From Escherichia coli (GTDB lineage Bacteria > Pseudomonadota > Gammaproteobacteria > Enterobacterales > Enterobacteriaceae): 64,000 bases of DNA. A program made the position numbers and the translations under genes. The stretch's first letter is position 1. Every line of letters begins with the position of its first letter. The notes below the pieces were generated by a model. The model had not been told where the DNA came from and made no database searches. It was given only the letters and a program-made list of their open reading frames with translations. Shown one piece after another: positions 9,086 through 64,000 of the stretch. Where the stretch lies: NCBI RefSeq assembly GCF_030384885.1, contig NZ_CP128613.1; one strand, 5' to 3'.

Positions 9086-9336
9086 GGTTCTCTCCCTAAA
9101 AATCTGTCTGGCAGGGTAGCGATTTGTGCGCATTGTCACGATTGAGATTTTTTAAGGTGAGAGGAAATTGATAATTTGTAGTTATGTGAAATTGTTATTT
9201 TCTGTAGTGTGAATGCATTATTCTGATTTCGTGATAAGTAAAATGCATTAGAAAAAGTATGGAGTAATTAAACGTGAGGACGAAACTATATGCGTAGCGC
9301 CGCTGTAATTTACAACGGCCTACGGAGATATGTTGT

Positions 9337-10200
9337 TTACTCAATATTCTGGATTTGCTCGCGCATCTGCTCGATCAACACTTTCAGCTCGATGGCAGAG
9401 TTTGTCACTTCGGCATTGATAGACTTCGAGGCCAGGGTGTTTGACTCGCGGTTGAACTCCTGCATCATAAAGTCCAGACGACGACCAACGGCTTCTTTTT
9501 TCTTCAGAATGTTGTAGGTCTCTTTAACATGCGCTTCGAGGCGGTCCAACTCTTCGGCAACGTCAATTCGTTGTGCCAGCAGAACCAACTCCTGCTCCAG
9601 ACGGTTGTTTTCCAGTTGCACCTGGGCGTCTTCCAGCTTAGCCACCAGACGTTCACGCTGCCATTGCAGGATTTCCGGCATATGGGCGCGGACTTTGACC
9701 ACTTCGGCGGTCACGCCTTCCAGACGCTGCTCGATCAATGCTTTCAGCGCCTGACCTTCGGTTTCGCGCGCGACGATAAAGTCATCCAGCGTACCATCCA
9801 GCGCCGCGAGAATTTCAGCAGCAATCGCGTCGAGATCCTGCTCCTGGGCTGCCATCACGCCTGGCCAACGGAGAATATCAACCGGGTTGATTTCCCCTTC
9901 GTCACTCTGCATTTTTACCCAGTTCGCGGCAGTTACCAGCTGTTTAGCCAGTTTTTCGTTGAGGATCAGCTCACCTTGCGCGCTAACATCTGGCTCATAG
10001 CGCAGGGTACATTCCACTTTACCGCGCGTCAGGCGAGAACGAATACGCTCGCGAACGACAGGTTCAAGGCTACGGAACTGCTCCGGCAGACGAAAGTAAG
10101 TTTCCAGATAACGCTGGTTTACCGAGCGCATTTCCCAGGTTGCGCTCCCCCATTCACCCTTGATTTCACGCCGGGCGTAGGCGGTCATACTGCGGATCAT
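9337..10200 (-). CDS. yicC: YicC-family stress-induced protein
   Basis: 287-aa ORF MIRSMTAYARREIKGEWGSATWEMRSVNQRYLE...; divergent from rph as in K-12. Confidence 0.95.
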   Translation of the reverse strand: MIRSMTAYARREIKGEWGSATWEMRSVNQRYLETYFRLPEQFRSLEPVVRERIRSRLTRGKVECTLRYEPDVSAQGELILNEKLAKQLVTAANWVKMQSDEGEINPVDILRWPGVMAAQEQDLDAIAAEILAALDGTLDDFIVARETEGQALKALIEQRLEGVTAEVVKVRAHMPEILQWQRERLVAKLEDAQVQLENNRLEQELVLLAQRIDVAEELDRLEAHVKETYNILKKKEAVGRRLDFMMQEFNRESNTLASKSINAEVTNSAIELKVLIEQMREQIQNIE

Positions 10201-10326
10201 AGACGTTCCTGTTTATAAAAGGAGAGGTGGAAGGATTATAGCCATCGATGCCTTGTCAGGATAGGAATAACCGCCGGAAGTCCGTATAATGCGCAGCCAC
10301 ATTTGTTTCAAGCCGGAGATTTCAAT

Positions 10327-11043
10327 ATGCGTCCAGCAGGCCGTAGCAATAATCAGGTGCGTCCCGTTACCCTGACTCGTAACTATACAAAACATGCAGA
10401 AGGCTCGGTGCTGGTCGAATTTGGCGATACCAAAGTGTTGTGTACCGCCTCTATTGAAGAAGGCGTGCCGCGCTTCCTGAAAGGTCAGGGCCAGGGCTGG
10501 ATCACCGCAGAATACGGTATGCTGCCGCGTTCTACTCATACCCGTAATGCCCGTGAAGCGGCGAAAGGTAAGCAGGGGGGACGCACAATGGAAATCCAGC
10601 GTCTGATCGCCCGTGCTCTTCGCGCGGCAGTAGATTTGAAAGCGCTGGGTGAGTTCACCATTACGCTGGACTGCGACGTGCTTCAGGCTGATGGTGGCAC
10701 GCGTACCGCTTCTATCACCGGTGCTTGTGTTGCACTAGCCGATGCCCTGAATAAACTGGTTGAAAATGGCAAGCTGAAAACCAACCCGATGAAAGGGATG
10801 GTAGCCGCGGTTTCTGTCGGGATTGTGAACGGCGAAGCGGTTTGCGATCTGGAATACGTTGAAGACTCTGCCGCTGAAACGGACATGAACGTGGTGATGA
10901 CCGAAGACGGGCGCATCATTGAAGTGCAGGGAACGGCAGAAGGCGAGCCGTTTACCCATGAAGAGCTACTCACCTTGTTGGCGCTGGCCCGAGGGGGAAT
11001 CGAATCCATTGTAGCGACGCAGAAGGCGGCGCTGGCAAACTGA
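10327..11043 (+). CDS. rph: Ribonuclease PH, intact full-length
   Basis: 238 aa from [26 protein letters not shown]... to ...ATQKAALAN; no sign of the K-12 rph-1 frameshift. Confidence 0.96.
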
Positions 11044-11048
11044 TTTTT

Positions 11049-11080
11049 AAGGCGACTGATGAGTCGCCTTTTTTTTGTCT
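11049..11080 (+). terminator. rph terminator / pyrE attenuator hairpin
   Basis: aaggcgactgatgagtcgcc hairpin followed by an 8-T run, directly upstream of pyrE. Confidence 0.85.
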
Positions 11081-11108
11081 GTAGAAAAGTAAGATGAGGA
11101 GCGAAGGC

Positions 11109-11750
11109 ATGAAACCATATCAGCGCCAGTTTATTGAATTTGCGCTTGGCAAGCAGGTGTTAAAGTTTGGCGAGTTTACGCTGAAGTCCGGGCGCAAAAG
11201 CCCCTATTTCTTCAACGCCGGGCTGTTTAATACCGGGCGCGATCTGGCACTGTTAGGCCGTTTTTACGCTGAAGCGTTAGTGGATTCCGGCATTAAGTTC
11301 GATCTGCTGTTTGGCCCTGCTTACAAAGGGATCCCAATTGCCACCACAACTGCTGTGGCGCTGGCGGAGCATCATGACCTGGATCTGCCGTACTGCTTTA
11401 ACCGCAAAGAAGCAAAAGACCACGGTGAAGGCGGCAATCTGGTCGGTAGCGCGTTACAAGGACGCGTAATGCTGGTGGATGATGTGATCACCGCCGGAAC
11501 GGCGATTCGTGAGTCGATGGAAATTATTCAGGCCAATGGCGCGACGCTTGCTGGCGTATTGATTTCGCTCGATCGTCAGGAGCGTGGTCGCGGCGAGATT
11601 TCGGCAATTCAGGAAGTTGAACGTGATTACAACTGCAAAGTGATCTCTATCATCACCCTGAAAGACTTGATTGCTTATCTGGAAGAGAAGCCAGAAATGG
11701 CGGAACATCTGGCGGCGGTTAAGGCCTATCGCGAAGAGTTCGGCGTTTAA
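11109..11750 (+). CDS. pyrE: Orotate phosphoribosyltransferase
   Basis: 213 aa from [36 protein letters not shown]... Confidence 0.97.
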
Positions 11751-11756
11751 AGAAAC

Positions 11757-11781
11757 TCGCCGGATGAAAAGTCATCCGGCG
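11757..11781. terminator. Hairpin between convergent pyrE and slmA
   Basis: cgccggatgaaaagtcatccggcg inverted repeat just after the pyrE stop. Confidence 0.6.
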
Positions 11782-11786
11782 TCATA

Positions 11787-12383
11787 TTACTGCAACTGTG
11801 CAGCAATTAGCGGCCAGCGGGCGTCAAAGTCATCCGTCGGGCGGTATTTAAACTCGCTGCGGACAAAGCGTGACAGCATACCTTCACAGAAGGCCAGGAT
11901 CTGGCTTGCCAGCAGTGTTTCATCGGTGGTGTAACCTTCACCCTCACGCATTCTCTTTTCACGCAATACCTGACGCAACTGCGCTTCAATACGCTCGAAC
12001 AGTTGGTTGATGCGCCCTTGCAGGCGGTCTTGTTCAAACATCAGCGCATGCCCGGTAAGGATGCGGGTCAGGCCAGGATTACGCTCACCAAAACCGAGGA
12101 GCAACAACACGATCAGACGCAGGCGCGCTGTGGTGTCCTTCTCATCTTTCAGAATCAGATTGATGCGAGTAATCAGGCTATCTTCGATAAACTCAATCAG
12201 GCTATCGAACATGCGGGTCTTACTGGGGAAGTGGCGATACAGTGCCGCTTCGGAAACGCCGACAGAGGCGGCCAGTTTTGCCGTCGTGATACGTTGGCTT
12301 CCATCGCTGGATTCCAGCATCAGCGCCAGAGACTGAAGTATTTCTTCGCGACGGTTCCTTTTCGCAGTTTGTTTTTCTGCCAT
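11787..12383 (-). CDS. slmA: Nucleoid occlusion factor SlmA (TetR family)
   Basis: 198 aa from [52 protein letters not shown]... Confidence 0.96.
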
Positions 12384-18659: not shown

Positions 18660-18700
18660 ATCAGTATTCAGGTAGCTGTTGAGCCTGGGGCGGTAGCGTG
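18660..18700 (+). promoter_or_regulatory. JUMPstart region with ops element (RfaH recruitment site) in the waaQ leader
   Basis: GGCGGTAGCGTG at 18689..18700 matches the ops consensus GGCGGTAGnnTG on the non-template strand upstream of waaQ. Confidence 0.85.
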
Positions 18701-18749: not shown

Positions 18750-19808
18750 GTGGATAAGCCATTTCGAAGAATTTTGCTCATTAAGATGCGTTTTCATGGG
18801 GATATGTTATTAACTACTCCCGTCATTAGTTCGCTGAAAAAAAATTACCCTGACGCAAAAATCGATGTGCTGCTTTATCAGGACACCATCCCGATCCTAT
18901 CTGAAAATCCAGAGATTAACGCGCTCTACGGCATAAAAAATAAAAAAGCAAAAGCTTCAGAAAAAATTGCCAACTTTTTTCATCTCATCAAGGTATTACG
19001 TGCCAATAAGTATGACCTTATCGTTAATCTTACCGATCAATGGATGGTTGCTATACTGGTTCGCTTATTAAATGCCCGTGTGAAAATTTCCCAGGATTAT
19101 CATCATCGGCAGTCTGCTTTTTGGCGTAAAAGCTTCACCCATCTGGTGCCGTTGCAGGGTGGAAATGTGGTGGAAAGTAACTTATCCGTGCTGACGCCAT
19201 TGGGACTTGAATCGTTGGTGAAGCAGACAACCATGAGTTACCCGCCTGCAAGCTGGAAACGTATGCGTCGCGAACTTGATCACGCAGGTGTTGGACAAAA
19301 TTATGTGGTTATCCAACCTACGGCGCGGCAAATCTTCAAATGCTGGGACAACGGCAAGTTTTCCGCTGTGATTGATGCCTTACATACACGTGGCTATGAA
19401 GTCGTTCTGACGTCCGGCCCGGATAAAGACGATCTGGCCTGCGTCAATGAAATTGCGCAGGGATGCCAGACGCCACCAGTAACGGCGTTGGCCGGAAAGG
19501 TAACCTTCCCGGAACTTGGTGCGTTAATCGATCATGCGCAGCTGTTTATTGGCGTTGATTCCGCACCGGCGCACATTGCCGCTGCAGTTAATACGCCGCT
19601 GATATCGCTGTTTGGTGCAACAGACCATATTTTCTGGCGTCCCTGGTCAAATAACATGATTCAATTCTGGGCGGGAGATTACCGGGAAATGCCAACACGC
19701 GATCAGCGTGACCGAAATGAGATGTATCTTTCGGTTATTCCGGCGGCAGATGTCATTGCTGCTGTTGATAAATTATTGCCATCCTCCACGACAGGTACGT
19801 CGTTATGA
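18750..19808 (+). CDS. waaQ: LPS heptosyltransferase III WaaQ
   Basis: GT9 heptosyltransferase-like ORF, first gene of the long waa operon; start is uncertain (GTG at 18750 or ATG at 18786). Confidence 0.88.
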   Translation: MDKPFRRILLIKMRFHGDMLLTTPVISSLKKNYPDAKIDVLLYQDTIPILSENPEINALYGIKNKKAKASEKIANFFHLIKVLRANKYDLIVNLTDQWMVAILVRLLNARVKISQDYHHRQSAFWRKSFTHLVPLQGGNVVESNLSVLTPLGLESLVKQTTMSYPPASWKRMRRELDHAGVGQNYVVIQPTARQIFKCWDNGKFSAVIDALHTRGYEVVLTSGPDKDDLACVNEIAQGCQTPPVTALAGKVTFPELGALIDHAQLFIGVDSAPAHIAAAVNTPLISLFGATDHIFWRPWSNNMIQFWAGDYREMPTRDQRDRNEMYLSVIPAADVIAAVDKLLPSSTTGTSL

Positions 19809-20929
19809 TCGTTGCTTTCTGTTTATATAAATATTTTCCCTTTGGCGGTTTGCAACGCGATTTTATGCGTATTGCTCAGACAGTCGCCGCCCGAGGTCAT
19901 CATGTTCGGGTTTATGCCCAGTCGTGGGAAGGCGAATGCCCTGATATATTTGAACTGATCAAAGTGCCGGTTAAATCGCATACCAATCACGGGCGCAATG
20001 CGGAGTATTTTGCCTGGGTGCAAAAACATTTACGTGAACATCCCGTCGATAGAGTCGTTGGATTCAACAAAATGCCGGGGCTGGACGTTTATTATGCCGC
20101 TGATGTTTGTTATGCCGAGAAAGTAGCGCAGGAGAAAGGCTTTTTCTATCGCCTGACGTCACGTTATCGCCATTATGCCGCCTTTGAGCGGGCAACCTTC
20201 GAACAGGGCAAGCCGACACAGCTGCTGATGCTGACGGACAAGCAAATCGCCGATTTCCAGAAACATTATCAGACTGAAGCGGAGCGTTTTCATATTCTGC
20301 CACCGGGGATTTATCCTGATCGTAAATATAGCCAGCAGCCAGCCAATAGCCGTGAAATCTTCCGTAAGAAGAATGGAATAACCGAACAACAATATTTATT
20401 GTTGCAGGTCGGTTCAGACTTCACGCGTAAAGGTGTTGATCGTTCCATTGAAGCACTTGCTTCATTACCGGATTCGCTGCGCCACAACACATTGCTATAT
20501 GTTGTTGGGCAGGATAAACCGCGAAAATTTGAGGCGCTGGCAGAAAAACGCGGCGTGCGCAGTAATGTTCACTTCTTCTCTGGGCGTAACGATGTCTCGG
20601 AATTAATGGCGGCGGCGGATTTATTACTGCATCCTGCCTATCAGGAAGCGGCTGGAATTGTGCTGCTGGAAGCGATTACTGCAGGATTACCGGTTCTAAC
20701 AACTGCTGTTTGTGGTTATGCGCATTATATTGTTGACGCTAATTGCGGCGAGGCTATTGCTGAGCCGTTCCGCCAGGAAACATTGAATGAGTTTTTACGC
20801 AAAGCGTTAACGCAATCTTCATTGCGCCAGGCCTGGGCTGAAAATGCGCGACATTATGCTGATACACAAGATTTATACAGTCTGCCAGAGAAAGCGGCGG
20901 ATATCATAACGGGTGGTCTGGATGGTTGA
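19805..20929 (+). CDS. waaG: LPS glucosyltransferase I WaaG (GT4)
   Basis: 374-aa [40 protein letters not shown]... Confidence 0.96.
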
Positions 20930-21719
20930 ACTGAAAGAGCCGTTTGCCACGTTATGGCGCGGTAAAGATCCTTTTGAGGAGGTTAAAACCTTGCAGGGTG
21001 AGGTATTTCGTGAACTGGAAACTCGCCGCACTCTGCGCTTTGAAATGGCGGGCAAAAGCTATTTTCTCAAATGGCATCGCGGCACGACCCTGAAAGAGAT
21101 AATCAAAAATTTACTCTCATTGCGGATGCCAGTATTAGGCGCAGACCGCGAATGGAATGCGATTCATCGGCTGCGGGATGTCGGCGTTGATACTATGTAT
21201 GGGGTGGCATTCGGCGAAAAAGGCATTAATCCGCTGACCAGAACCTCGTTTATTATAACCGAAGATCTGACACCAACCATCAGTCTGGAAGATTACTGTG
21301 CTGACTGGGCGACTAACCCTCCAGATGTTCGCGTAAAGCGTATGCTTATTAAGCGTGTCGCGACGATGGTGCGCGATATGCATGCTGCGGGCATTAACCA
21401 CCGTGACTGTTATATCTGTCATTTCCTGCTGCACTTGCCTTTTTCTGGTAGGGAAGAGGAGTTAAAAATTTCGGTAATTGACCTGCACCGGGCGCAGCTT
21501 CGCACGCGCGTTCCACGTCGTTGGCGCGATAAAGATCTTATTGGGCTTTATTTTTCTTCGATGAATATTGGCCTGACTCAGCGGGATATCTGGCGGTTCA
21601 TGAAGGTGTATTTTGCTGCCCCGCTTAAAGACATTCTCAAGCAGGAACAAGGGCTGCTGTCGCAAGCAGAAGCAAAAGCCACAAAAATCAGGGAAAGAAC
21701 GATTCGAAAATCGTTGTAA
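20922..21719 (+). CDS. waaP: LPS core heptose(I) kinase WaaP
   Basis: 265 aa from [33 protein letters not shown]... Confidence 0.95.
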
Positions 21720-21761
21720 CCCGTAACTTATTTTTGCCAAAAATTTGGATACAGAGTAAAT

Positions 21762-22769
21762 ATGTCTCAACTCAATGATAGTGACATCATCCTTTTTGAG
21801 TATAATTTTCATTATAAGAATATAAGATCTAAAAATACTCTTGATATAGCATTTGGAATTGATAGAAATTTTCTTTTTGGATGTGGTGTAGCCATTGCAT
21901 CTATTCTATTAAACAATAGCGAAATCTCTTGTGAATTTCATGTTTTCACAGATTATATCAGTGATAAAGACAAGTTATATTTTTCCGATTTAGCAAAACA
22001 ATATAATTCAAGAATTAATATTTATGTTATCAATTGTGATAAGCTGAAGTCATTACCAAGCACGAAAAACTGGACTTACGCAACATATTTTCGATTTATA
22101 ATTGCAGATTATTTCTATAGTAAACATGAAAAAATACTATATCTTGATGCAGATATTGCTTGCAAGGGTAGTATTAAAGAACTCTTAGATTATCAATTTT
22201 CTACTAATGAAATTGCCGCAGTTGTAGCTGAAAGAGATGTTGAATGGTGGCAGAATCGAGCCTCGATACTAACTACACCGCAATTAGCTTCTGGATATTT
22301 TAATGCTGGTTTTTTGCTGATAAATATTGTTGAGTGGAATCGAAATAACATTTCGTCAAAAGCTATTGAAATGTTGCGTGATCCAGATTGGGTAAGTAAA
22401 ATCACCCACCTTGATCAAGATGTCCTGAATGTATTATTGAATGGTAAAGTCAAATTTATATCAGAAAAATATAATACCCGATATAGTATTAACTATGAAT
22501 TAAAAGACAAGGTTGATAATCCAGTCAATGATGACACTGTGTTCATACACTATGTAGGGCCTACAAAACCCTGGCATGAGTGGGCTGATTATCCTGTGTC
22601 ACGTAGTTTTTTGATCGCCAAAGCTGCTTCTCCGTGGTGTAAAGAAGATTTACTTAAACCTGTAAATAGCAATCAGTATCGGTATTGCGCAAAACATAAA
22701 TTTAAACAAAAGCATTATATAGCAAGCATTCTTAATTATTTAAAATATTATAAAGAAAAATGCTTCTAA
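21762..22769 (+). CDS. waaI: Glycosyltransferase family 8 outer-core hexosyltransferase (WaaI-like, R3-type)
   Basis: GT8-type sequence with DAD motif (YLDADIACKGS); low-GC gene; the name follows the R3 gene order Q-G-P-I-Y-J-D. Confidence 0.75.
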   Translation: MSQLNDSDIILFEYNFHYKNIRSKNTLDIAFGIDRNFLFGCGVAIASILLNNSEISCEFHVFTDYISDKDKLYFSDLAKQYNSRINIYVINCDKLKSLPSTKNWTYATYFRFIIADYFYSKHEKILYLDADIACKGSIKELLDYQFSTNEIAAVVAERDVEWWQNRASILTTPQLASGYFNAGFLLINIVEWNRNNISSKAIEMLRDPDWVSKITHLDQDVLNVLLNGKVKFISEKYNTRYSINYELKDKVDNPVNDDTVFIHYVGPTKPWHEWADYPVSRSFLIAKAASPWCKEDLLKPVNSNQYRYCAKHKFKQKHYIASILNYLKYYKEKCF

Positions 22770-22794
22770 ATATTTAAGGTTAAAATACTTCATC

Positions 22795-23502
22795 ATGATA
22801 TATAATAAAACGATAAATGGGTTGAAAGTTCTCATAAAAGATAATGATCCCTTTTACGAGCAAGTTCTGAATGACTTTTTAACTTGTAGGATTAAAACAT
22901 TAAAAGTTTTTCGTTCTATTGATGATACTAAAGTCATTCTTATTGACACTGCTCGCGGACCTCTTGTGCTTAAAGTTTATGCGCCAAAGCATAAAATGGC
23001 CGAACGTTTCTTAAAATCTTGTGTCAAAAAAGATTATTATGAGAACTTAATTTATCAAACTGATCGGGTACGTGGTGAGGGCATCCAATCAATTAATGAC
23101 TATTTTTTACTTGCTGAACGTAAAACATTAAATTTCTCACATTATTATATTATGCTCATTGAGTATATTGAAGGTGTGGGGTTAAATGAGTATTCGGAAA
23201 TTTCAGAAGATCTGAAGCATCAATTATCAGAATCGATTAAAGAGTTGCATCAGCATGGAATGGTGTCTGGCGATCCTCATAAAGGAAATTTTATAGTATC
23301 CGAAAAAGGATTAAGACTAATAGACCTTTCAGGTAAAAAAACAACCGCAGTTTTAAAAGCGAAAGATCGTATTGATCTCGAACGGCACTATAATATAAAA
23401 AATGAATTGAAAGACTTTGGCTATACATACCTTGTATTCAAAAAGAAAATTAAAAAAGCAATCAGGGATGTAAAAATCAAGCTGGGATTGAAGAACAAAT
23501 AA
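22795..23502 (+). CDS. waaY: LPS core heptose(II) kinase WaaY
   Basis: 235-aa small kinase-like ORF between two GT8 genes, as expected for WaaY; low GC. Confidence 0.8.
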   Translation: MIYNKTINGLKVLIKDNDPFYEQVLNDFLTCRIKTLKVFRSIDDTKVILIDTARGPLVLKVYAPKHKMAERFLKSCVKKDYYENLIYQTDRVRGEGIQSINDYFLLAERKTLNFSHYYIMLIEYIEGVGLNEYSEISEDLKHQLSESIKELHQHGMVSGDPHKGNFIVSEKGLRLIDLSGKKTTAVLKAKDRIDLERHYNIKNELKDFGYTYLVFKKKIKKAIRDVKIKLGLKNK

Positions 23503-23526
23503 TATTTATGATGAAGGGTAACTAAA

Positions 23527-24540
23527 TTGGATTTTAAACATCTTACTCGATTTAAAGATATAATTGAACTGGACAAACGCCCTGTTAAAATTGAAGAACG
23601 GGAAACGTTCAATGTCTCATGGGGTATTGATGAGAACTACCAGATTGGGGCTGCGATTTCAATTGCTTCAATTCTTGAAAATAATAAAGAAAACAACTTC
23701 ACCTTTCACGTAATCGCTGATTACTTAGACAAAGAGTATATTGAATTATTATCACAATTAGCAACGAAATATCGAACGGTTATTAAATTATATCATATTG
23801 ATTCTGAGCCACTGAAAGCGTTACCTCAATCAAATATCTGGCCAGTATCTATTTATTATCGTTTGCTTTCATTTGATTATTTTTCTTCGCGATTAGATTC
23901 ATTATTATATCTTGATGCTGATATTGTCTGTAAGGGTTCATTAAATGAGTTACTGGAATTAGAATTTAAAGATGAATATGGTGCTGTAGTAATTGATGTT
24001 GATGCTATGCAAAGTAAAAGTGCTGAGCGTTTGTGTAATGGGGATTTTAACGGTAGCTATTTTAACTCTGGTGTAATGTATATTAATTTACGAGAATGGT
24101 TAAAACAAAGACTAACGGAGAAATTCTTTGATCTATTATCAGATGAGTCAATTATCAAAAAATTAAAGTACCCGGATCAAGATATTTTAAACTTAATGTT
24201 TCTACATCATGCTAAAATATTACCAAGAAAATATAATTGTATTTATACTATAAAATCAGAATTTGAAGAAAAAAATAGCGAATATTATACCCGTTTTATT
24301 AATGATGAAACTGTCTTCATACATTACACTGGTGTAACTAAGCCATGGCATGATTGGGCGAACTATGCATCGGCAGATTATTTTCGTAATATTTATAATA
24401 TATCTCCATGGAGAAATATACCTTATAAAAAAGCTGTTAAAAAACATGAGTATAAAGAAAAATATAAGCACTTGCTTTACCAGAAAAAATTTCTTGATGG
24501 TGTTTTTACAGCAATTAAATATAATGTTATGAAAGGTTAA
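23527..24540 (+). CDS. waaJ: Glycosyltransferase family 8 outer-core hexosyltransferase (WaaJ-like)
   Basis: Second GT8 paralogue (LYLDADIVCKGS); TTG start at 23527. Confidence 0.75.
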   Translation: MDFKHLTRFKDIIELDKRPVKIEERETFNVSWGIDENYQIGAAISIASILENNKENNFTFHVIADYLDKEYIELLSQLATKYRTVIKLYHIDSEPLKALPQSNIWPVSIYYRLLSFDYFSSRLDSLLYLDADIVCKGSLNELLELEFKDEYGAVVIDVDAMQSKSAERLCNGDFNGSYFNSGVMYINLREWLKQRLTEKFFDLLSDESIIKKLKYPDQDILNLMFLHHAKILPRKYNCIYTIKSEFEEKNSEYYTRFINDETVFIHYTGVTKPWHDWANYASADYFRNIYNISPWRNIPYKKAVKKHEYKEKYKHLLYQKKFLDGVFTAIKYNVMKG

Positions 24541-24548
24541 TATTCGAG

Positions 24549-25691
24549 ATGGTTGATAAAATAATATTTACAGTTACTCCTATTTTTTCAATTCCTCCTC
24601 GCGGAGCGGCCGCTGTTGAAACGTGGATGTATCAGGTTGCTCAGCGTACCAATTTCCCAAATCGTATTGTTTGTATCAAGAATCCAGGATACTCAAATTA
24701 CACCTTTGTTAATGATAATTGTAGTATTCATAGGGTTGGATTCAGTCGCATATATAAGCGGTTATTTCAAAAATGGACAAGACTTGATCCTCTTCCATAT
24801 TCACAGAGAATATTGAATATTGCCCATGATTTTCCTATAACGAAAGAAAGTGTTATTGTAGTTCATAATAGCATGAAGCTATACACTCAAATTCGTAAGC
24901 GAGCACCTCAGGCAAGAGTGGTTATACATATGCATAATGCATTTGAACCAAAATTGCTTGAGCAAAATGTTAAAATGATAGTGCCTAGTTTATACTTGAA
25001 AAAGTATTACCAATCTTATTTAGCAAATGCAGATATTGAGATTGTACCAAATGGAATTGATTTAGAAACCTATCAATCTACTTTTCAGCCGATCACTAGA
25101 AGCGAACTTAGTATCTCCCCTGAAGAGAAAATTATTTTTTATGCTGGGCGTATCGTCCCTGACAAAGGCATATTACTGTTGATGCAATCATTCGAAAAAT
25201 TGGCCGCTGCTCACAAAAATTTAAAATTAGTTGTGATTGGTGATTATACAGAAATGAGTAAAAGTGACAAAGGTGCATATCAACACAATGTCAGGGAAAT
25301 TGCAAAACGTTTGAAGGATCGTTGCATTATGTTAGGAAGCATACCGCCTGAAAAGATGCATTGTTATTACCCACTGGCAGATTTAGTTGTCATTCCTTCC
25401 CAGTTCCAGGAACCATTTTGCATGGTGGCAATTGAAGCTATGGGGGCTGGTAAGCCTGTTTTAGTGAGTACGCGTGGGGGGATGACGGAATTTGTCAAAG
25501 AAAATACTACGGGATTCCATTTAAAAGAACCTATGTCTGCAGACTCTATAAGCAGCGATATTTTAAAAACGTTAGCGAATCCTGAATTAACAGCAGTTGC
25601 AAAGCAAGGTCAGGATTTTGTGTTTGATCACTACAGTTGGGATGGCGTAACTCAAAGATTTGAAGAGGTCATTCATAATTGGTTTGAATAA
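24549..25691 (+). CDS. waaD: GT4 glycosyltransferase, WaaD-like (R3 core-type-specific transferase)
   Basis: 380-aa GT4-like ORF with a C-terminal E-x7-E-like region (FCMVAIEAMGAGKPVL); last gene before convergent waaL, as in R3-type clusters. Confidence 0.7.
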   Translation: MVDKIIFTVTPIFSIPPRGAAAVETWMYQVAQRTNFPNRIVCIKNPGYSNYTFVNDNCSIHRVGFSRIYKRLFQKWTRLDPLPYSQRILNIAHDFPITKESVIVVHNSMKLYTQIRKRAPQARVVIHMHNAFEPKLLEQNVKMIVPSLYLKKYYQSYLANADIEIVPNGIDLETYQSTFQPITRSELSISPEEKIIFYAGRIVPDKGILLLMQSFEKLAAAHKNLKLVVIGDYTEMSKSDKGAYQHNVREIAKRLKDRCIMLGSIPPEKMHCYYPLADLVVIPSQFQEPFCMVAIEAMGAGKPVLVSTRGGMTEFVKENTTGFHLKEPMSADSISSDILKTLANPELTAVAKQGQDFVFDHYSWDGVTQRFEEVIHNWFE

Positions 25692-25692
25692 A

Positions 25693-25722
25693 TAAAAAGG
25701 CCGCATTATGCAGCCTTTTTTA
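25693..25722. terminator. Bidirectional terminator between waaD and waaL
   Basis: aaaaaggccgcattatgcagcctttttt: imperfect hairpin flanked by A and T runs. Confidence 0.7.
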
Positions 25723-25726
25723 TTTT

Positions 25727-26935
25727 TTACTTGTTTTTCATTGCTAATAATAAGCCGGCGTAAACGCCTAATAAATTTGGTTCAATTTGTTCTACGTTTC
25801 CACGGATAACAAAATAACCTATAAAAGATAGTAAGATTATATAATATGCATTATATGGTGAGCGGTTTTTATTCTGGACGCTATTTTTTATACACTCTTT
25901 CAATATTGCGCAGTATAGCATCATAAGACTTATCAGCCCTAATAAACCAGTGCCAAACCAGATGAATAGCGCAAAATTATGTGGCCCTATCGATTGTCTA
26001 AAGGTCCATTCTGGATAATCAACGACACGTTTATTATAGACATCTTTATATGCAACGTTACCGTAACCGTAACCAATAACAGGATTTTCTAATATTAGAT
26101 CGAGTGCGCTGCCTTGAGTACCATTTGCATAGCGATAAGAACTATTAGTTTGTTGAAGTTTATACGTTAGATTTGCGGTCATCTCCTTATGTGTGAAAAT
26201 AACCGATAATGCAATGATGGAAACCATTACTCCTACTAATAGTAACTTCCATTGTTTAAACATCAGAATCCATATTAATCCAATGACTAACACGGAAAGC
26301 CAGGCTCCTCTGGATAAAGTTCCTAATATCAGAAAAATAAAAATAACGCTTAGAACCGCAAAAGAAATGCGGTATTTTGCTGATTTGATAAGCCAGAGAT
26401 TTAACAATGCAGGAAATAAAAAGACCATCGAGTCAGAAATGCTACGGTGTCTATAATCTGCAAATGGCATTACCCCTTGTTGATAGTCCTTATAATAGGC
26501 AATCAATTCAGAAAAACAACGTAAGCCCAACGCACTTATAAATGAGAAGAAAACGATTTTTTCGACATCTTCTCTTTTCTCGTCTCTCAATATGACCGGT
26601 ATTGCTATTGTGCACAGTAAAGTATTCTCAATGATAGCTTTGAAAATTTCCTTCATGCTAGCACCTGCATCTGGGGATTGAAGAAGTGATAGCAATGCAG
26701 CAATAGTTAATATGGCAACACTACCAAAAAGACATGTTTTAAATAGTGAAAGATAGTGTTTTGGCCGTTTGCAGAGATAGACGATTGTCGTTATTGTCAT
26801 AAGAATAACAATAAGATGTTTATACCTTGTAATCCCACCCAAAAAATAGGTGGTAATGAATAAGAATACGAGAGCTCTGTTCCAGTACGCTATCCAGTTT
26901 TTTTTCTCGAGAGAGAAAAATAATGTTGAGGTCAT
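25727..26935 (-). CDS. waaL: O-antigen ligase WaaL
   Basis: 402-aa polytopic membrane protein; low GC; immediately downstream of waaC, overlapping it by 4 nt. Confidence 0.85.
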   Translation of the reverse strand: MTSTLFFSLEKKNWIAYWNRALVFLFITTYFLGGITRYKHLIVILMTITTIVYLCKRPKHYLSLFKTCLFGSVAILTIAALLSLLQSPDAGASMKEIFKAIIENTLLCTIAIPVILRDEKREDVEKIVFFSFISALGLRCFSELIAYYKDYQQGVMPFADYRHRSISDSMVFLFPALLNLWLIKSAKYRISFAVLSVIFIFLILGTLSRGAWLSVLVIGLIWILMFKQWKLLLVGVMVSIIALSVIFTHKEMTANLTYKLQQTNSSYRYANGTQGSALDLILENPVIGYGYGNVAYKDVYNKRVVDYPEWTFRQSIGPHNFALFIWFGTGLLGLISLMMLYCAILKECIKNSVQNKNRSPYNAYYIILLSFIGYFVIRGNVEQIEPNLLGVYAGLLLAMKNK

Positions 26936-60395: not shown

Positions 60396-60917
60396 TTATT
60401 CATCGATGCATTTTATAGAATCATCAATGGCTACAATAGTACTATTAACTCTCCAATTTATATTTTTATTATCATTGCAAATATTAACTGAATCTATATC
60501 AATGATTTTTCTATTTTTATCTTTTATTTTATTTACAGTTTCAATGCAATCAGCGACAAGTTGGTGTGGATTTAGATTCTTCAGATATGGTCTTATGATC
60601 TTTCCCTTGCTTAATAAATAGCATGTATAGGATTCGGAAAGTCCAGCATCTATTTTGTACATCATTATTCTAGATAAGGATGTGAGAAATGCCTTGTTAT
60701 CATTAGCAGCCATATATGCCAGTCCGAGTTCAGCCTCTGCGGCTTTACATGAAAAATAGCTAAATGAACACGCTTTTCGTCCCTCTTGGGTACTGGCTGA
60801 TATTAGTGCCCATAATATTGCCTTGTCTGCCAAATCCAACTCTCTCTGAAATTGGTTTACAGTAACTGCATTCGCAGAAATAGAGAAAAAAAGCACAATT
60901 GTTAATAACCTTGCCAT
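60396..60917 (-). CDS. Putative secreted immunity protein for the orphan Rhs toxin tip
   Basis: 173-aa, very AT-rich ORF starting 4 nt after the stop of the orphan rhs fragment; N-terminal signal peptide (MARLLTIVLFFSISANA); immunity role inferred from position. Confidence 0.6.
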   Translation of the reverse strand: MARLLTIVLFFSISANAVTVNQFQRELDLADKAILWALISASTQEGRKACSFSYFSCKAAEAELGLAYMAANDNKAFLTSLSRIMMYKIDAGLSESYTCYLLSKGKIIRPYLKNLNPHQLVADCIETVNKIKDKNRKIIDIDSVNICNDNKNINWRVNSTIVAIDDSIKCIDE

Positions 60918-60921
60918 ATTT

Positions 60922-62334
60922 CTAGTCCGTCACTGTTAATGTGCTATCTGGCTCTGAAAATATTAGCCCATTTAATTTTTGCATGTCATTAGATGAACCA
61001 GTTATACAACCCTCGGAACAGAATCGAGGTCCTAAAGATGGACCAAAAGCGTTTAAACAACTATGTGTTAAAAATCCATCACGATTATACGTTTCTGTAT
61101 TTGCTGACGGTACTAAACGTATACCATTAGGTTTTCTATTAGTTGCTCCAGGACCATTAACATTCCAGGTCCATACCCCTTGAGGTATTGGGCCTCTATT
61201 TTGTAAGTGTGTACAACCAGGATTATTTTTACATTGCATATTATTACCATTATTACCAGAGGCGACTGAAATAGTAAGCACACCATAAGAATTATCATCA
61301 CTTGGCGTATCTGAAACGCATGAAAGCATACCTAAAGTTATGCTGTATAAACAGGTCGCTAATCCCAACGGGTCAATATCAGTTATCGGATTCAACGGAT
61401 ACTGATAAAAATTCCATCCCCCCTTCAGCCCAATCGGATCCTGAGTGATATACCGCCCCTGCAGCGGGTCATAATAGCGGTGGCGGTTGTAATACAGGCC
61501 GGACTCCTCATCATACTGCTGACCCGGCAGGCGGATGAGCTGCTGCAGCTGGTGCGGGTTCTCTTCATTCAGCAGGTTGCCCCATTCATCATATTCTGCG
61601 TACCACGCTGTTGCCCCTTCCGTGCTGACAAGCGCCAGCGGCAGGCCGCGATGGTCGCAGTGGTACAGGTGGATTTTTCGCGCCGGCGTGTACACCGGGT
61701 CCATCTGGTTTTGCATCTGCTCCACCGTCAGGCCGCACGATGCCAGCCAGCGGCGGCTTTCCTCACTCACCCGGTCAGCCAGGATTTCACTTTCCAGCCG
61801 GTCGAGCATCTGCACCAGCACCGGCGGGAACACCACATGGCCTCCGTCTTCGCCGCCGGACTGCTGAAGGGCATCCGCCAGGCTGCGGCGCTGCGTTTTC
61901 GCCAGCTCACCGGTGGCGGTTTCGACCCTGATGAGTGGCGTGAAACTTCCCGGCAGGTATACCGTCTGGATGCGGGTTCTGTCGTTCTGTATCGTGGTCA
62001 GCCGGTCGCCATCCCAGCCGTACCAGGTCACTTCCGGTTTCCTTGACAGCGACATCCAGCCCGTCAGGTCCCGTTCACGCCGCCACACCCGTTTTGCCAC
62101 CCTGCGGCCCAGCGGGTCGTAAAGATAGCGACTTTCGACCAGCGGCTCTGCATATTGTGTCCGCGTGTAGTGCACCAGCCGGTGCCGGCTGTCGTAATGG
62201 TACCGGTGAGTCCGCTCATCATCCGTGCGGATAACCCCTTCCGGGATGAGGTCGGTTTTCTCCGTCAGCCTGCCGTGACGGTCATACCGGTAAAGATAGT
62301 GCGCGTCACGGGCGATACGGTTATCCGGCCACAT
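60922..62334 (-). CDS. Orphan Rhs C-terminal fragment: core repeats plus alternative toxin tip
   Basis: N-terminal ~320 aa identical to the upstream rhs 3' region (YD-repeat core ending ...[27 protein letters not shown]); followed by a ~145-aa divergent, low-GC C-terminal domain containing THSC...SEGCITG. Confidence 0.85.
61385..62133. repeat. Direct repeat copy A (rhs core 3' segment), identical to 63252..64000
   Basis: The identical antisense ORFs 61480..62046 and 63347..63913 (188 aa) and direct base comparison show an offset of 1867 bp; identity runs to the window edge. Confidence 0.9.
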
Positions 62335-62447
62335 GCTGAGGGTGCTGTCCGGGTGCAGCTCCGGGTCGGGCAGGCGGTTACCTGCCGGGTCTGTTGCATA
62401 CGGGATATCAATGCCCAGGTTACATATAATAATAAGAGCAATTAACT

Positions 62448-62774
62448 TTATTTATTTATAATGCGCTTACTTAATACAAACCATTGAATATACCCTCCTG
62501 ACAGAAAATAAAGCCATATTATTATCGCCATAATATACTTGCTATCAATTCTTACGCCAATAATGTCTGAAATACTCCCTATAAATATTAGAGCAATAAA
62601 GAATACTATGCCTGTTGGAAAACATATTACCATCATTCCATAAGACATGAGACTAATTAACTCGCTCACATCACGAGTGGAGTCTAATAGTGAAAGTCTA
62701 TGCATGGAAAAGAATAGCATTAAAAGTGATAACGCCAGCCATATAGCTCTGAATGAAAAAATAATATATTTCAT
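62448..62774 (-). CDS. Putative membrane immunity protein for the primary Rhs toxin tip
   Basis: 108-aa AT-rich ORF with about three hydrophobic helices; its ATG overlaps the rhs TAA stop by 1 nt (TAATG), suggesting translational coupling. Confidence 0.65.
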
Positions 62775-64000
62775 TACATCACTCCGGTGAATACAAATCT
62801 AATAAAACGTCCAATGTTATTTCCGGAGCACTTCATCTTACATGTTTCTAAAGAATCATTAGACCAGTCTTGGCAGTTTTTAAATAGCCCTAAATTTATA
62901 GGTGTGAATATATCAGGCAATACAGAATAACGCGGCCTTACCTCTTTAAATTTCCCTTTTAAACAGTTCTCCACACAACTATTATCGGTTTCAACGAGGT
63001 CACAACGGCCAGCAGCTTCTTTTGTATCATTACTTGCTTTACCTGGCCCCCATAGACCATCTCCTTTTGATTCTCCCCGTTGGTCTTGGCCACCACAAGT
63101 ATAGTCCCCTTTACCATCTGGGACACAAAGATATTGATGATAGAACGGATTCCCCCATATATCTGGACCGCTTCTTTCACCAGTTCCGCCCATTGAATGC
63201 AGTGGCTTAATGCATTTTAGTGTTTCTAATCCTAATGGATCTATATTTGAGATCGGATTCAACGGATACTGATAAAAATTCCATCCCCCCTTCAGCCCAA
63301 TCGGATCCTGAGTGATATACCGCCCCTGCAGCGGGTCATAATAGCGGTGGCGGTTGTAATACAGGCCGGACTCCTCATCATACTGCTGACCCGGCAGGCG
63401 GATGAGCTGCTGCAGCTGGTGCGGGTTCTCTTCATTCAGCAGGTTGCCCCATTCATCATATTCTGCGTACCACGCTGTTGCCCCTTCCGTGCTGACAAGC
63501 GCCAGCGGCAGGCCGCGATGGTCGCAGTGGTACAGGTGGATTTTTCGCGCCGGCGTGTACACCGGGTCCATCTGGTTTTGCATCTGCTCCACCGTCAGGC
63601 CGCACGATGCCAGCCAGCGGCGGCTTTCCTCACTCACCCGGTCAGCCAGGATTTCACTTTCCAGCCGGTCGAGCATCTGCACCAGCACCGGCGGGAACAC
63701 CACATGGCCTCCGTCTTCGCCGCCGGACTGCTGAAGGGCATCCGCCAGGCTGCGGCGCTGCGTTTTCGCCAGCTCACCGGTGGCGGTTTCGACCCTGATG
63801 AGTGGCGTGAAACTTCCCGGCAGGTATACCGTCTGGATGCGGGTTCTGTCGTTCTGTATCGTGGTCAGCCGGTCGCCATCCCAGCCGTACCAGGTCACTT
63901 CCGGTTTCCTTGACAGCGACATCCAGCCCGTCAGGTCCCGTTCACGCCGCCACACCCGTTTTGCCACCCTGCGGCCCAGCGGGTCGTAAAGATAGCGACT
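62774..64000 (-). CDS. Rhs family protein, 3' end (core C-terminus plus toxin tip); 5' end outside window
   Basis: ORF open to the window edge; YD-repeat core ending ...[27 protein letters not shown], then a ~150-aa Cys-rich, low-GC C-terminal domain. Confidence 0.88.
63252..64000. repeat. Direct repeat copy B (rhs core 3' segment)
   Basis: Identical to 61385..62133; truncated by the window edge. Confidence 0.9.

Follow-up and report, generated by a model that had tools for sequence, protein, structure and literature searches.

RNase PH, the product of rph, is a phosphorolytic 3'-5' exoribonuclease which plays a part in tRNA 3'-end maturation. In the laboratory strains MG1655 and W3110, rph carries a one-base deletion, the rph-1 allele, and the rph-pyrE locus described here raises the question of whether that lesion is absent, what this would imply for the expression of pyrE, and how much it can tell about the strain of origin. 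The locus (positions 10327-11080) lies in a 64,000-nt stretch of Escherichia coli assembly GCF_030384885.1, contig NZ_CP128613.1, hereafter the window. Taken as a whole, the analysis makes it very probable that the window contains a wild-type, bicistronic rph-pyrE operon with attenuator-controlled pyrE, from a non-K-12 Escherichia most likely belonging to cryptic clade I, near strain 2013C-4282. In itself, the feature is the ordinary wild-type state of this operon, which is already known.

MG1655 was represented by NC_000913.3, whose rph bears the annotation 'truncated RNase PH' (687 nt). In what follows, k-mer counts refer to 5426 complete E. coli genomes and similarity-match counts to 5424 such genomes.

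Reading frame and product of rph

The rph open reading frame extends over 717 nt, from an ATG at 10327 to the TGA listed in Table 1, and its translation ends in ...ATQKAALAN. The native C-terminus is hence present in the 238-aa RNase PH of the window, as opposed to the 228-aa product of rph-1. The same gene is annotated by RefSeq at the matching coordinates of NZ_CP027579.1, a near-identical genome.

The product was clearly recognized as a full-length member of its family. It scored 380.9 bits (E = 1.8e-114) with the RNase PH equivalog profile TIGR01966, whose cutoff is 141.5, residues 2-236 aligning with profile positions 1-235 of 236. Both RNase PH domains were found by Pfam (PF01138, E = 1.1e-30; PF03725, E = 7.6e-16), and the RNase PH structure PDB 1r6l was matched with E = 4.7e-104. 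This structure is that of the Pseudomonas aeruginosa enzyme, and another solved member of the family is 1oyp of Bacillus subtilis. No notable departure from the family was seen, the protein being a lineage-specific allele (RefSeq WP_001247087.1). The rph gene of the window thus encodes an intact RNase PH, which is predicted to be enzymatically active.

Table 1. Features of the rph-pyrE locus, in window coordinates
Feature	Coordinates	Strand	Basis
Perfect TATAAT hexamer, candidate -10 element of the rph-pyrE promoter	10285..10290	+	Read from sequence; role putative
rph, full-length RNase PH, 238 aa + TGA	10327..11043	+	ORF list, direct translation, profile matches
Highly divergent 65-nt segment, codons ~127-148, with V138A and Q142N	10706..10770	+	Alignment
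G5 run, intact here, from which rph-1 (MG1655/W3110) has lost one base	10993..10997	+	Alignment column 793
TAG triplet, out of frame here, premature stop in rph-1	11012..11014	+	In-silico G deletion
Native rph stop TGA; 5 nt to the attenuator stem	11041..11043	+	Sequence, translation
pyrE attenuator: intrinsic-terminator hairpin + T8	11049..11076	+	Terminator scan, fold
pyrE Shine-Dalgarno GAGGAG	11096..11101	+	Read from sequence; 7 nt before ATG
pyrE, orotate phosphoribosyltransferase, 213 aa	11109..11750	+	TIGR00336, 238.2 bits vs cutoff 106.8

The site of the rph-1 lesion was examined by aligning window positions 10201-11130 with the MG1655 locus. A single indel was observed over this whole interval, GGGGG in the window facing GGGG in MG1655. 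When one G was removed in silico from the rph of the window, translation ended prematurely in ...ARGESNPL, giving a 228-aa protein equal to the annotated MG1655 product. The two stops differ markedly in their distance to the hairpin, the rph-1 TAG ending 34 nt before it and the native TGA only 5 nt before it. MG1655 and W3110 thus have a G4 run and a stop located 29 nt earlier, whereas the window has the ancestral G5 and the native stop. The combination of G4 and premature TAG which characterizes the rph-1 allele was absent from the rph of the window, where the run is G5. Since the sole indel lies at this run and positions 11041-11128 are identical to MG1655, the window has an unaltered attenuator and does not carry the rph-1 lesion.

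These results bear on the sequence-only reading of this DNA, which had described a full 238-aa RNase PH with the C-terminus given above, the lack of the rph-1 frameshift, and an attenuator hairpin with its T-run just upstream of pyrE. The reading frame was confirmed by translation and by TIGR01966, the G5 run of the window by its alignment with the G4 run of MG1655, and the hairpin was found where it had been placed, with accurate coordinates. The alignment with MG1655 which that reading proposed as a check revealed no frameshift in the window near the 3' end of rph, the only indel being the G lost by MG1655 itself.

Apart from this indel, the rph of the window displayed 37 nucleotide differences from a frame-repaired MG1655 rph. 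As 32 of these fall in synonymous codons, purifying selection is indicated. Three amino-acid changes, V138A, Q142N and I216T, separate the two RNase PH proteins. Upstream of rph, positions 10201-10326 were identical to MG1655. They include the TATAAT hexamer of Table 1, which may provide the -10 element of the operon promoter, and which was left uncalled by the consensus scan because no good -35 element is found at 16-18 nt.

The intercistronic attenuator and the control of pyrE

The hairpin located between rph and pyrE consists of a G+C-rich stem of 9 bp (11049-11057 paired with 11062-11070) closed by a GAUG loop, with a T8 run (11069-11076). Its folding energy of -14.7 kcal/mol (z = -5.3) was matched by none of the 200 shuffled sequences. 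This significance is that of the local hairpin alone, the 83-nt stretch from the rph stop to pyrE showing none when folded whole (z = -1.59). From the T-run to the pyrE ATG (11109), 32 nt are left, and the Shine-Dalgarno sequence lies inside them. A consensus scan of the + strand over 10000-11625 called no promoter-like site, although a weak promoter could escape such a scan.

This intercistronic region is conserved. The stretch of about 90 nt running from the rph stop into pyrE (11041-11128) was identical to that of MG1655, and 4565 of 5424 E. coli genomes showed an identity of 99% or more over the 83 nt of 11030-11112. The attenuator was also identical in E69 and E1V33, and the two differences seen in E. 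albertii were both downstream of the T-run. No covariation was detected for the hairpin, the stem being invariant across all six Escherichia sequences aligned. An Rfam search of 10200-11800 placed no family on the attenuator. Its sole match in that interval, to RyhB, fell on the hairpin and T-run and was dismissed as chance, being below threshold (24.5 bits, gathering score 55, E = 0.087). In 17 of the 5424 genomes, 11030-11112 was not covered in one piece, as in 23CRST050 (NZ_AP045825.1), where two separate matches were obtained; this suggests indels around the attenuator of a few strains.

The same gene order is found around the rph-pyrE operon of K-12, where yicC is followed by rph and pyrE, located on the other strand, and these by slmA; the hairpin, the T8 run and the Shine-Dalgarno sequence are shared with the window. 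Because the attenuator sequence is identical, the regulatory mechanism proposed for K-12 was carried over to the window. This mechanism was drawn from passages of PMC2784333 and PMC11148124, both of which rest on Jensen (1993) and Bonekamp et al. (1984). According to these passages, pyrE expression needs a tight coupling between translation and transcription of rph at the intercistronic attenuator. The 1-bp deletion of MG1655 and W3110 is described there as leading to less orotate phosphoribosyltransferase and to partial pyrimidine starvation, and a stop codon shifted back toward the hairpin as relieving the pyrimidine defect of rph-1. The polarity of rph-1 on pyrE in these two strains, mentioned in the sequence-only reading, is stated in the same passages.

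From a mechanistic point of view, the terminator between rph and pyrE would be an attenuator that is coupled to translation and responds to UTP. At low UTP, RNA polymerase would lag at the end of rph, with the ribosome translating rph close behind. This ribosome, upon reaching the UGA, would cover the 5' arm of the stem, so that no hairpin would form and pyrE would be transcribed. When UTP is high, the polymerase would run ahead of the ribosome, the hairpin would form and transcription would end. In rph-1 strains, where ribosomes would stop 29 nt earlier, termination would be constitutively high. Considering the known sizes of ribosome footprints, a ribosome terminating at the native stop, 5 nt before the stem, should mask the 5' arm. 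Normal attenuator control is expected in the window, since the G5 run is intact and ribosomes should reach the native stop. Both the UTP dependence and the reach of the ribosome footprint are, for this operon, presumed by analogy with K-12. A strain carrying this locus should be free of the pyrimidine pseudo-auxotrophy and the missing RNase PH activity of MG1655, both of which are complications in physiological studies of that strain.

Two other accounts of the operon have to be weighed against this one. The hairpin could be the plain terminator of a monocistronic rph, pyrE being expressed from its own promoter and the frame of rph being irrelevant to it. Such an account is in line with the structure, which is that of a canonical intrinsic terminator, and with the fact that no Rfam family lists this hairpin as a regulatory element. 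However, a promoter would hardly fit downstream of the terminator, in 32 nt already holding a Shine-Dalgarno sequence, and no sigma-70-like site was called in rph on the + strand. Moreover, the sequence is that of the K-12 attenuator, for which polarity of rph-1 on pyrE is reported in the passages of PMC2784333 and PMC11148124 cited above. We consider a separate pyrE promoter very unlikely. As the 32-nt gap leaves little room for a promoter and no site was called there or within rph, transcription of pyrE is expected to depend on polymerases that read through the terminator.

The other account concerns the enzyme, since an rph in frame might still encode an RNase PH impaired by V138A, Q142N and I216T. 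The three differences from the K-12 reference are real, but the segment bearing A138 and N142 recurs in E. albertii, E69, SCPM-O-B-8794 and E1V33, most of the nucleotide differences (32 of 37) are in synonymous codons, and the TIGR01966 score is far above its cutoff. Impairment by these substitutions thus appears highly improbable, and the reading of an intact RNase PH encoded upstream of an attenuator-controlled pyrE is the one retained here.

Relation to K-12 and to the nearest genome

The value of the rph state for strain attribution depends on how widespread each form is. A 33-mer covering the intact G5 run was present in 5244 of the 5426 complete E. coli genomes (~97%), and the corresponding 32-mer with G4, of the rph-1 type, in 169. 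Among the 60 matches listed of these 169, nearly all were K-12 laboratory strains, and carriers of G4 include MG1655, W3110, BW25113, J53 and HMS174. Conversely, the K-12 strains JM83, JM109 and XL1-Blue are rph+ (PMC11148124).

A G4 run was also observed in 2015C-3101 (NZ_CP027221.1), a natural STEC isolate with a 5.3-Mb genome, whose rph is annotated as 'frameshifted' (544-1259 of the retrieved segment). This run has arisen independently, by slippage in the G5 homopolymer, or else results from an error of assembly. Because this natural isolate has G4, the marker is not strictly specific for K-12.

With the intact form in 5244 of 5426 genomes and G4 in 169, the marker says little. Intact rph is the default state and rules out no more than the MG1655/W3110 lineage in its unrepaired form; as a marker for K-12, the state of rph falls short of full sensitivity and of full specificity. 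Since rph+ K-12 strains exist, finding the gene intact does not suffice to set aside K-12, or an MG1655 with a repaired rph. The usefulness for strain attribution that the sequence-only reading had seen in this feature therefore holds for the exclusion of unrepaired MG1655/W3110, and hardly extends further, given the frequency of the intact form and the existence of rph+ K-12 strains. The rph-1 defect is a peculiarity of one laboratory lineage, and an intact rph matters little beyond sample attribution.

Could the window, then, come from a naturally rph+ K-12 strain (JM83, JM109, XL1-Blue, DH10B), or from a descendant of MG1655 whose rph was repaired or had reverted? The existence of rph+ K-12 strains is in favor of this, as is the identity to MG1655 of the intergenic region and of the first 300 nt of the locus. 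The remainder of the comparison clearly argues against it. Besides the 37 substitutions in rph, identity to MG1655 was 96.2% over 1.6 kb of the rph-pyrE locus, and about 1350 substitutions were counted over the first 21 kb, as aligned. The window lacks dinD, and its waa cluster differs from that of K-12 in both sequence and gene content, the divergence of the waa genes located beyond 18.4 kb exceeding 20%. Over 10200-11800, only 11 of 5424 genomes reached at least 99% identity, the others lying at 95-99%, and no K-12 strain was among the 11. In other words, near-identity to MG1655, dinD and a K-12-type waa cluster, by which the K-12 lineage may be recognized, were all lacking in the window. 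A K-12 origin, refuted by the alignments with MG1655, is so improbable as to be practically negligible. That the DNA is not from an MG1655 derivative, as proposed in the sequence-only reading, is upheld by these differences together with the 99.92% identity to 2013C-4282 described below. Judged from its sequence, the window is neither MG1655, W3110 nor BW25113, and is not K-12 at all.

Some details of these regions deserve mention. In MG1655, dinD lies between yicC and yicG; at the corresponding place in the window, the yicG-yicC intergenic region (9086-9336), the alignment has a gap of ~1.08 kb, and dinD is also absent in 2013C-4282. A JUMPstart element (RF01707, 55.2 bits) at 18662-18700 precedes the waaQ operon at 18750-26935. 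This operon contains waaO, a galactosyl-LPS alpha-1,2-glucosyltransferase gene and a GlcNAc transferase gene, without waaB and waaS, unlike that of K-12. The waa cluster at 18750-26935 may be of the R3 core type.

The nearest complete genome was that of E. coli 2013C-4282 (NZ_CP027579.1, from 3667789). BLAST gave 100.0% identity for the first 25 kb, identity over the first 50.4 kb was 99.92%, with 39 mismatches, and the rph region was 100% identical over 10200-11800. Strain 2013C-4282 is an Escherichia of cryptic clade I, of type OG9:H45 and stx1-positive (PMC10100065). On the strength of this nearest genome, the window most likely comes from a cryptic-clade-I Escherichia related to 2013C-4282. 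It is not NZ_CP027579.1 itself, a possibility rejected in view of the 39 mismatches in 50.4 kb and of structural differences after 49.4 kb.

Structural differences were seen at two loci. A gene for a YadA-like trimeric autotransporter adhesin of 1675 aa (46828-51855, - strand) carries a tandem array of 4.2 units, each of 213 nt (71 aa), at 49475-50361, and its counterpart in 2013C-4282 is ~852 nt longer, that is, by four 213-nt units. The rhs locus (60396-64000, - strand) is arranged differently from that of 2013C-4282. In the window, the RHS core gene runs off the end of the stretch, and its own C-terminal tip ends at 62774. After this tip come a 108-aa hydrophobic open reading frame (62448-62774), then an orphan rhs C-terminal fragment (60922-62334) and an immunity gene of the Imm57 family (60396-60917), a pattern which looks like that of displaced orphan toxin/immunity modules.

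A divergent segment within rph

Differences from MG1655 were unevenly distributed along the locus, with none in 10201-10500 and none in 10601-10700. By contrast, 18 of the 65 positions of segment 10706-10770 differ from MG1655 (28%). The same segment differs at only 2 of 65 positions from Escherichia sp. E1V33 and at 4 of 65 from SCPM-O-B-8794, both taken as Escherichia lineages other than E. coli. A degenerate DNA scan for the 13-aa peptide bearing A138 and N142, run on one genome per GTDB species, retrieved four records only, namely E. albertii, SCPM-O-B-8794 and E69 (both divergent and labelled E. coli), and Escherichia sp. E1V33. The mainstream E. coli version was about equally distant from all the other Escherichia versions, at 13-18 of 65 positions; these distances favor no particular direction of exchange, such as a recent import into the strain of the window.

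Within E. coli, the 111 nt of 10690-10800 reached at least 90% identity in 36 of 5424 genomes, the other 5388 lying at only 80-90%. Among these 36 carriers are 2013C-4282 and EC42405, which belong to clade I, but also the EPEC strain E2348/69. The segment was considered as a clean marker of clade I and rejected as such, EPEC E2348/69 having a 97.3% identical version, and 2013C-4282 and EC42405 being the only clade-I complete genomes of PMC10100065 among the 36 carriers. As E2348/69 also carries it, the segment is sporadic rather than a clean clade marker.

This leaves the main conclusion regarding rph-pyrE unaffected. We lean slightly toward considering 10706-10770 as a recombinational mosaic, which may record short-tract gene conversion between Escherichia lineages inside a housekeeping gene. 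If this is true, the segment could serve as a small lineage marker.
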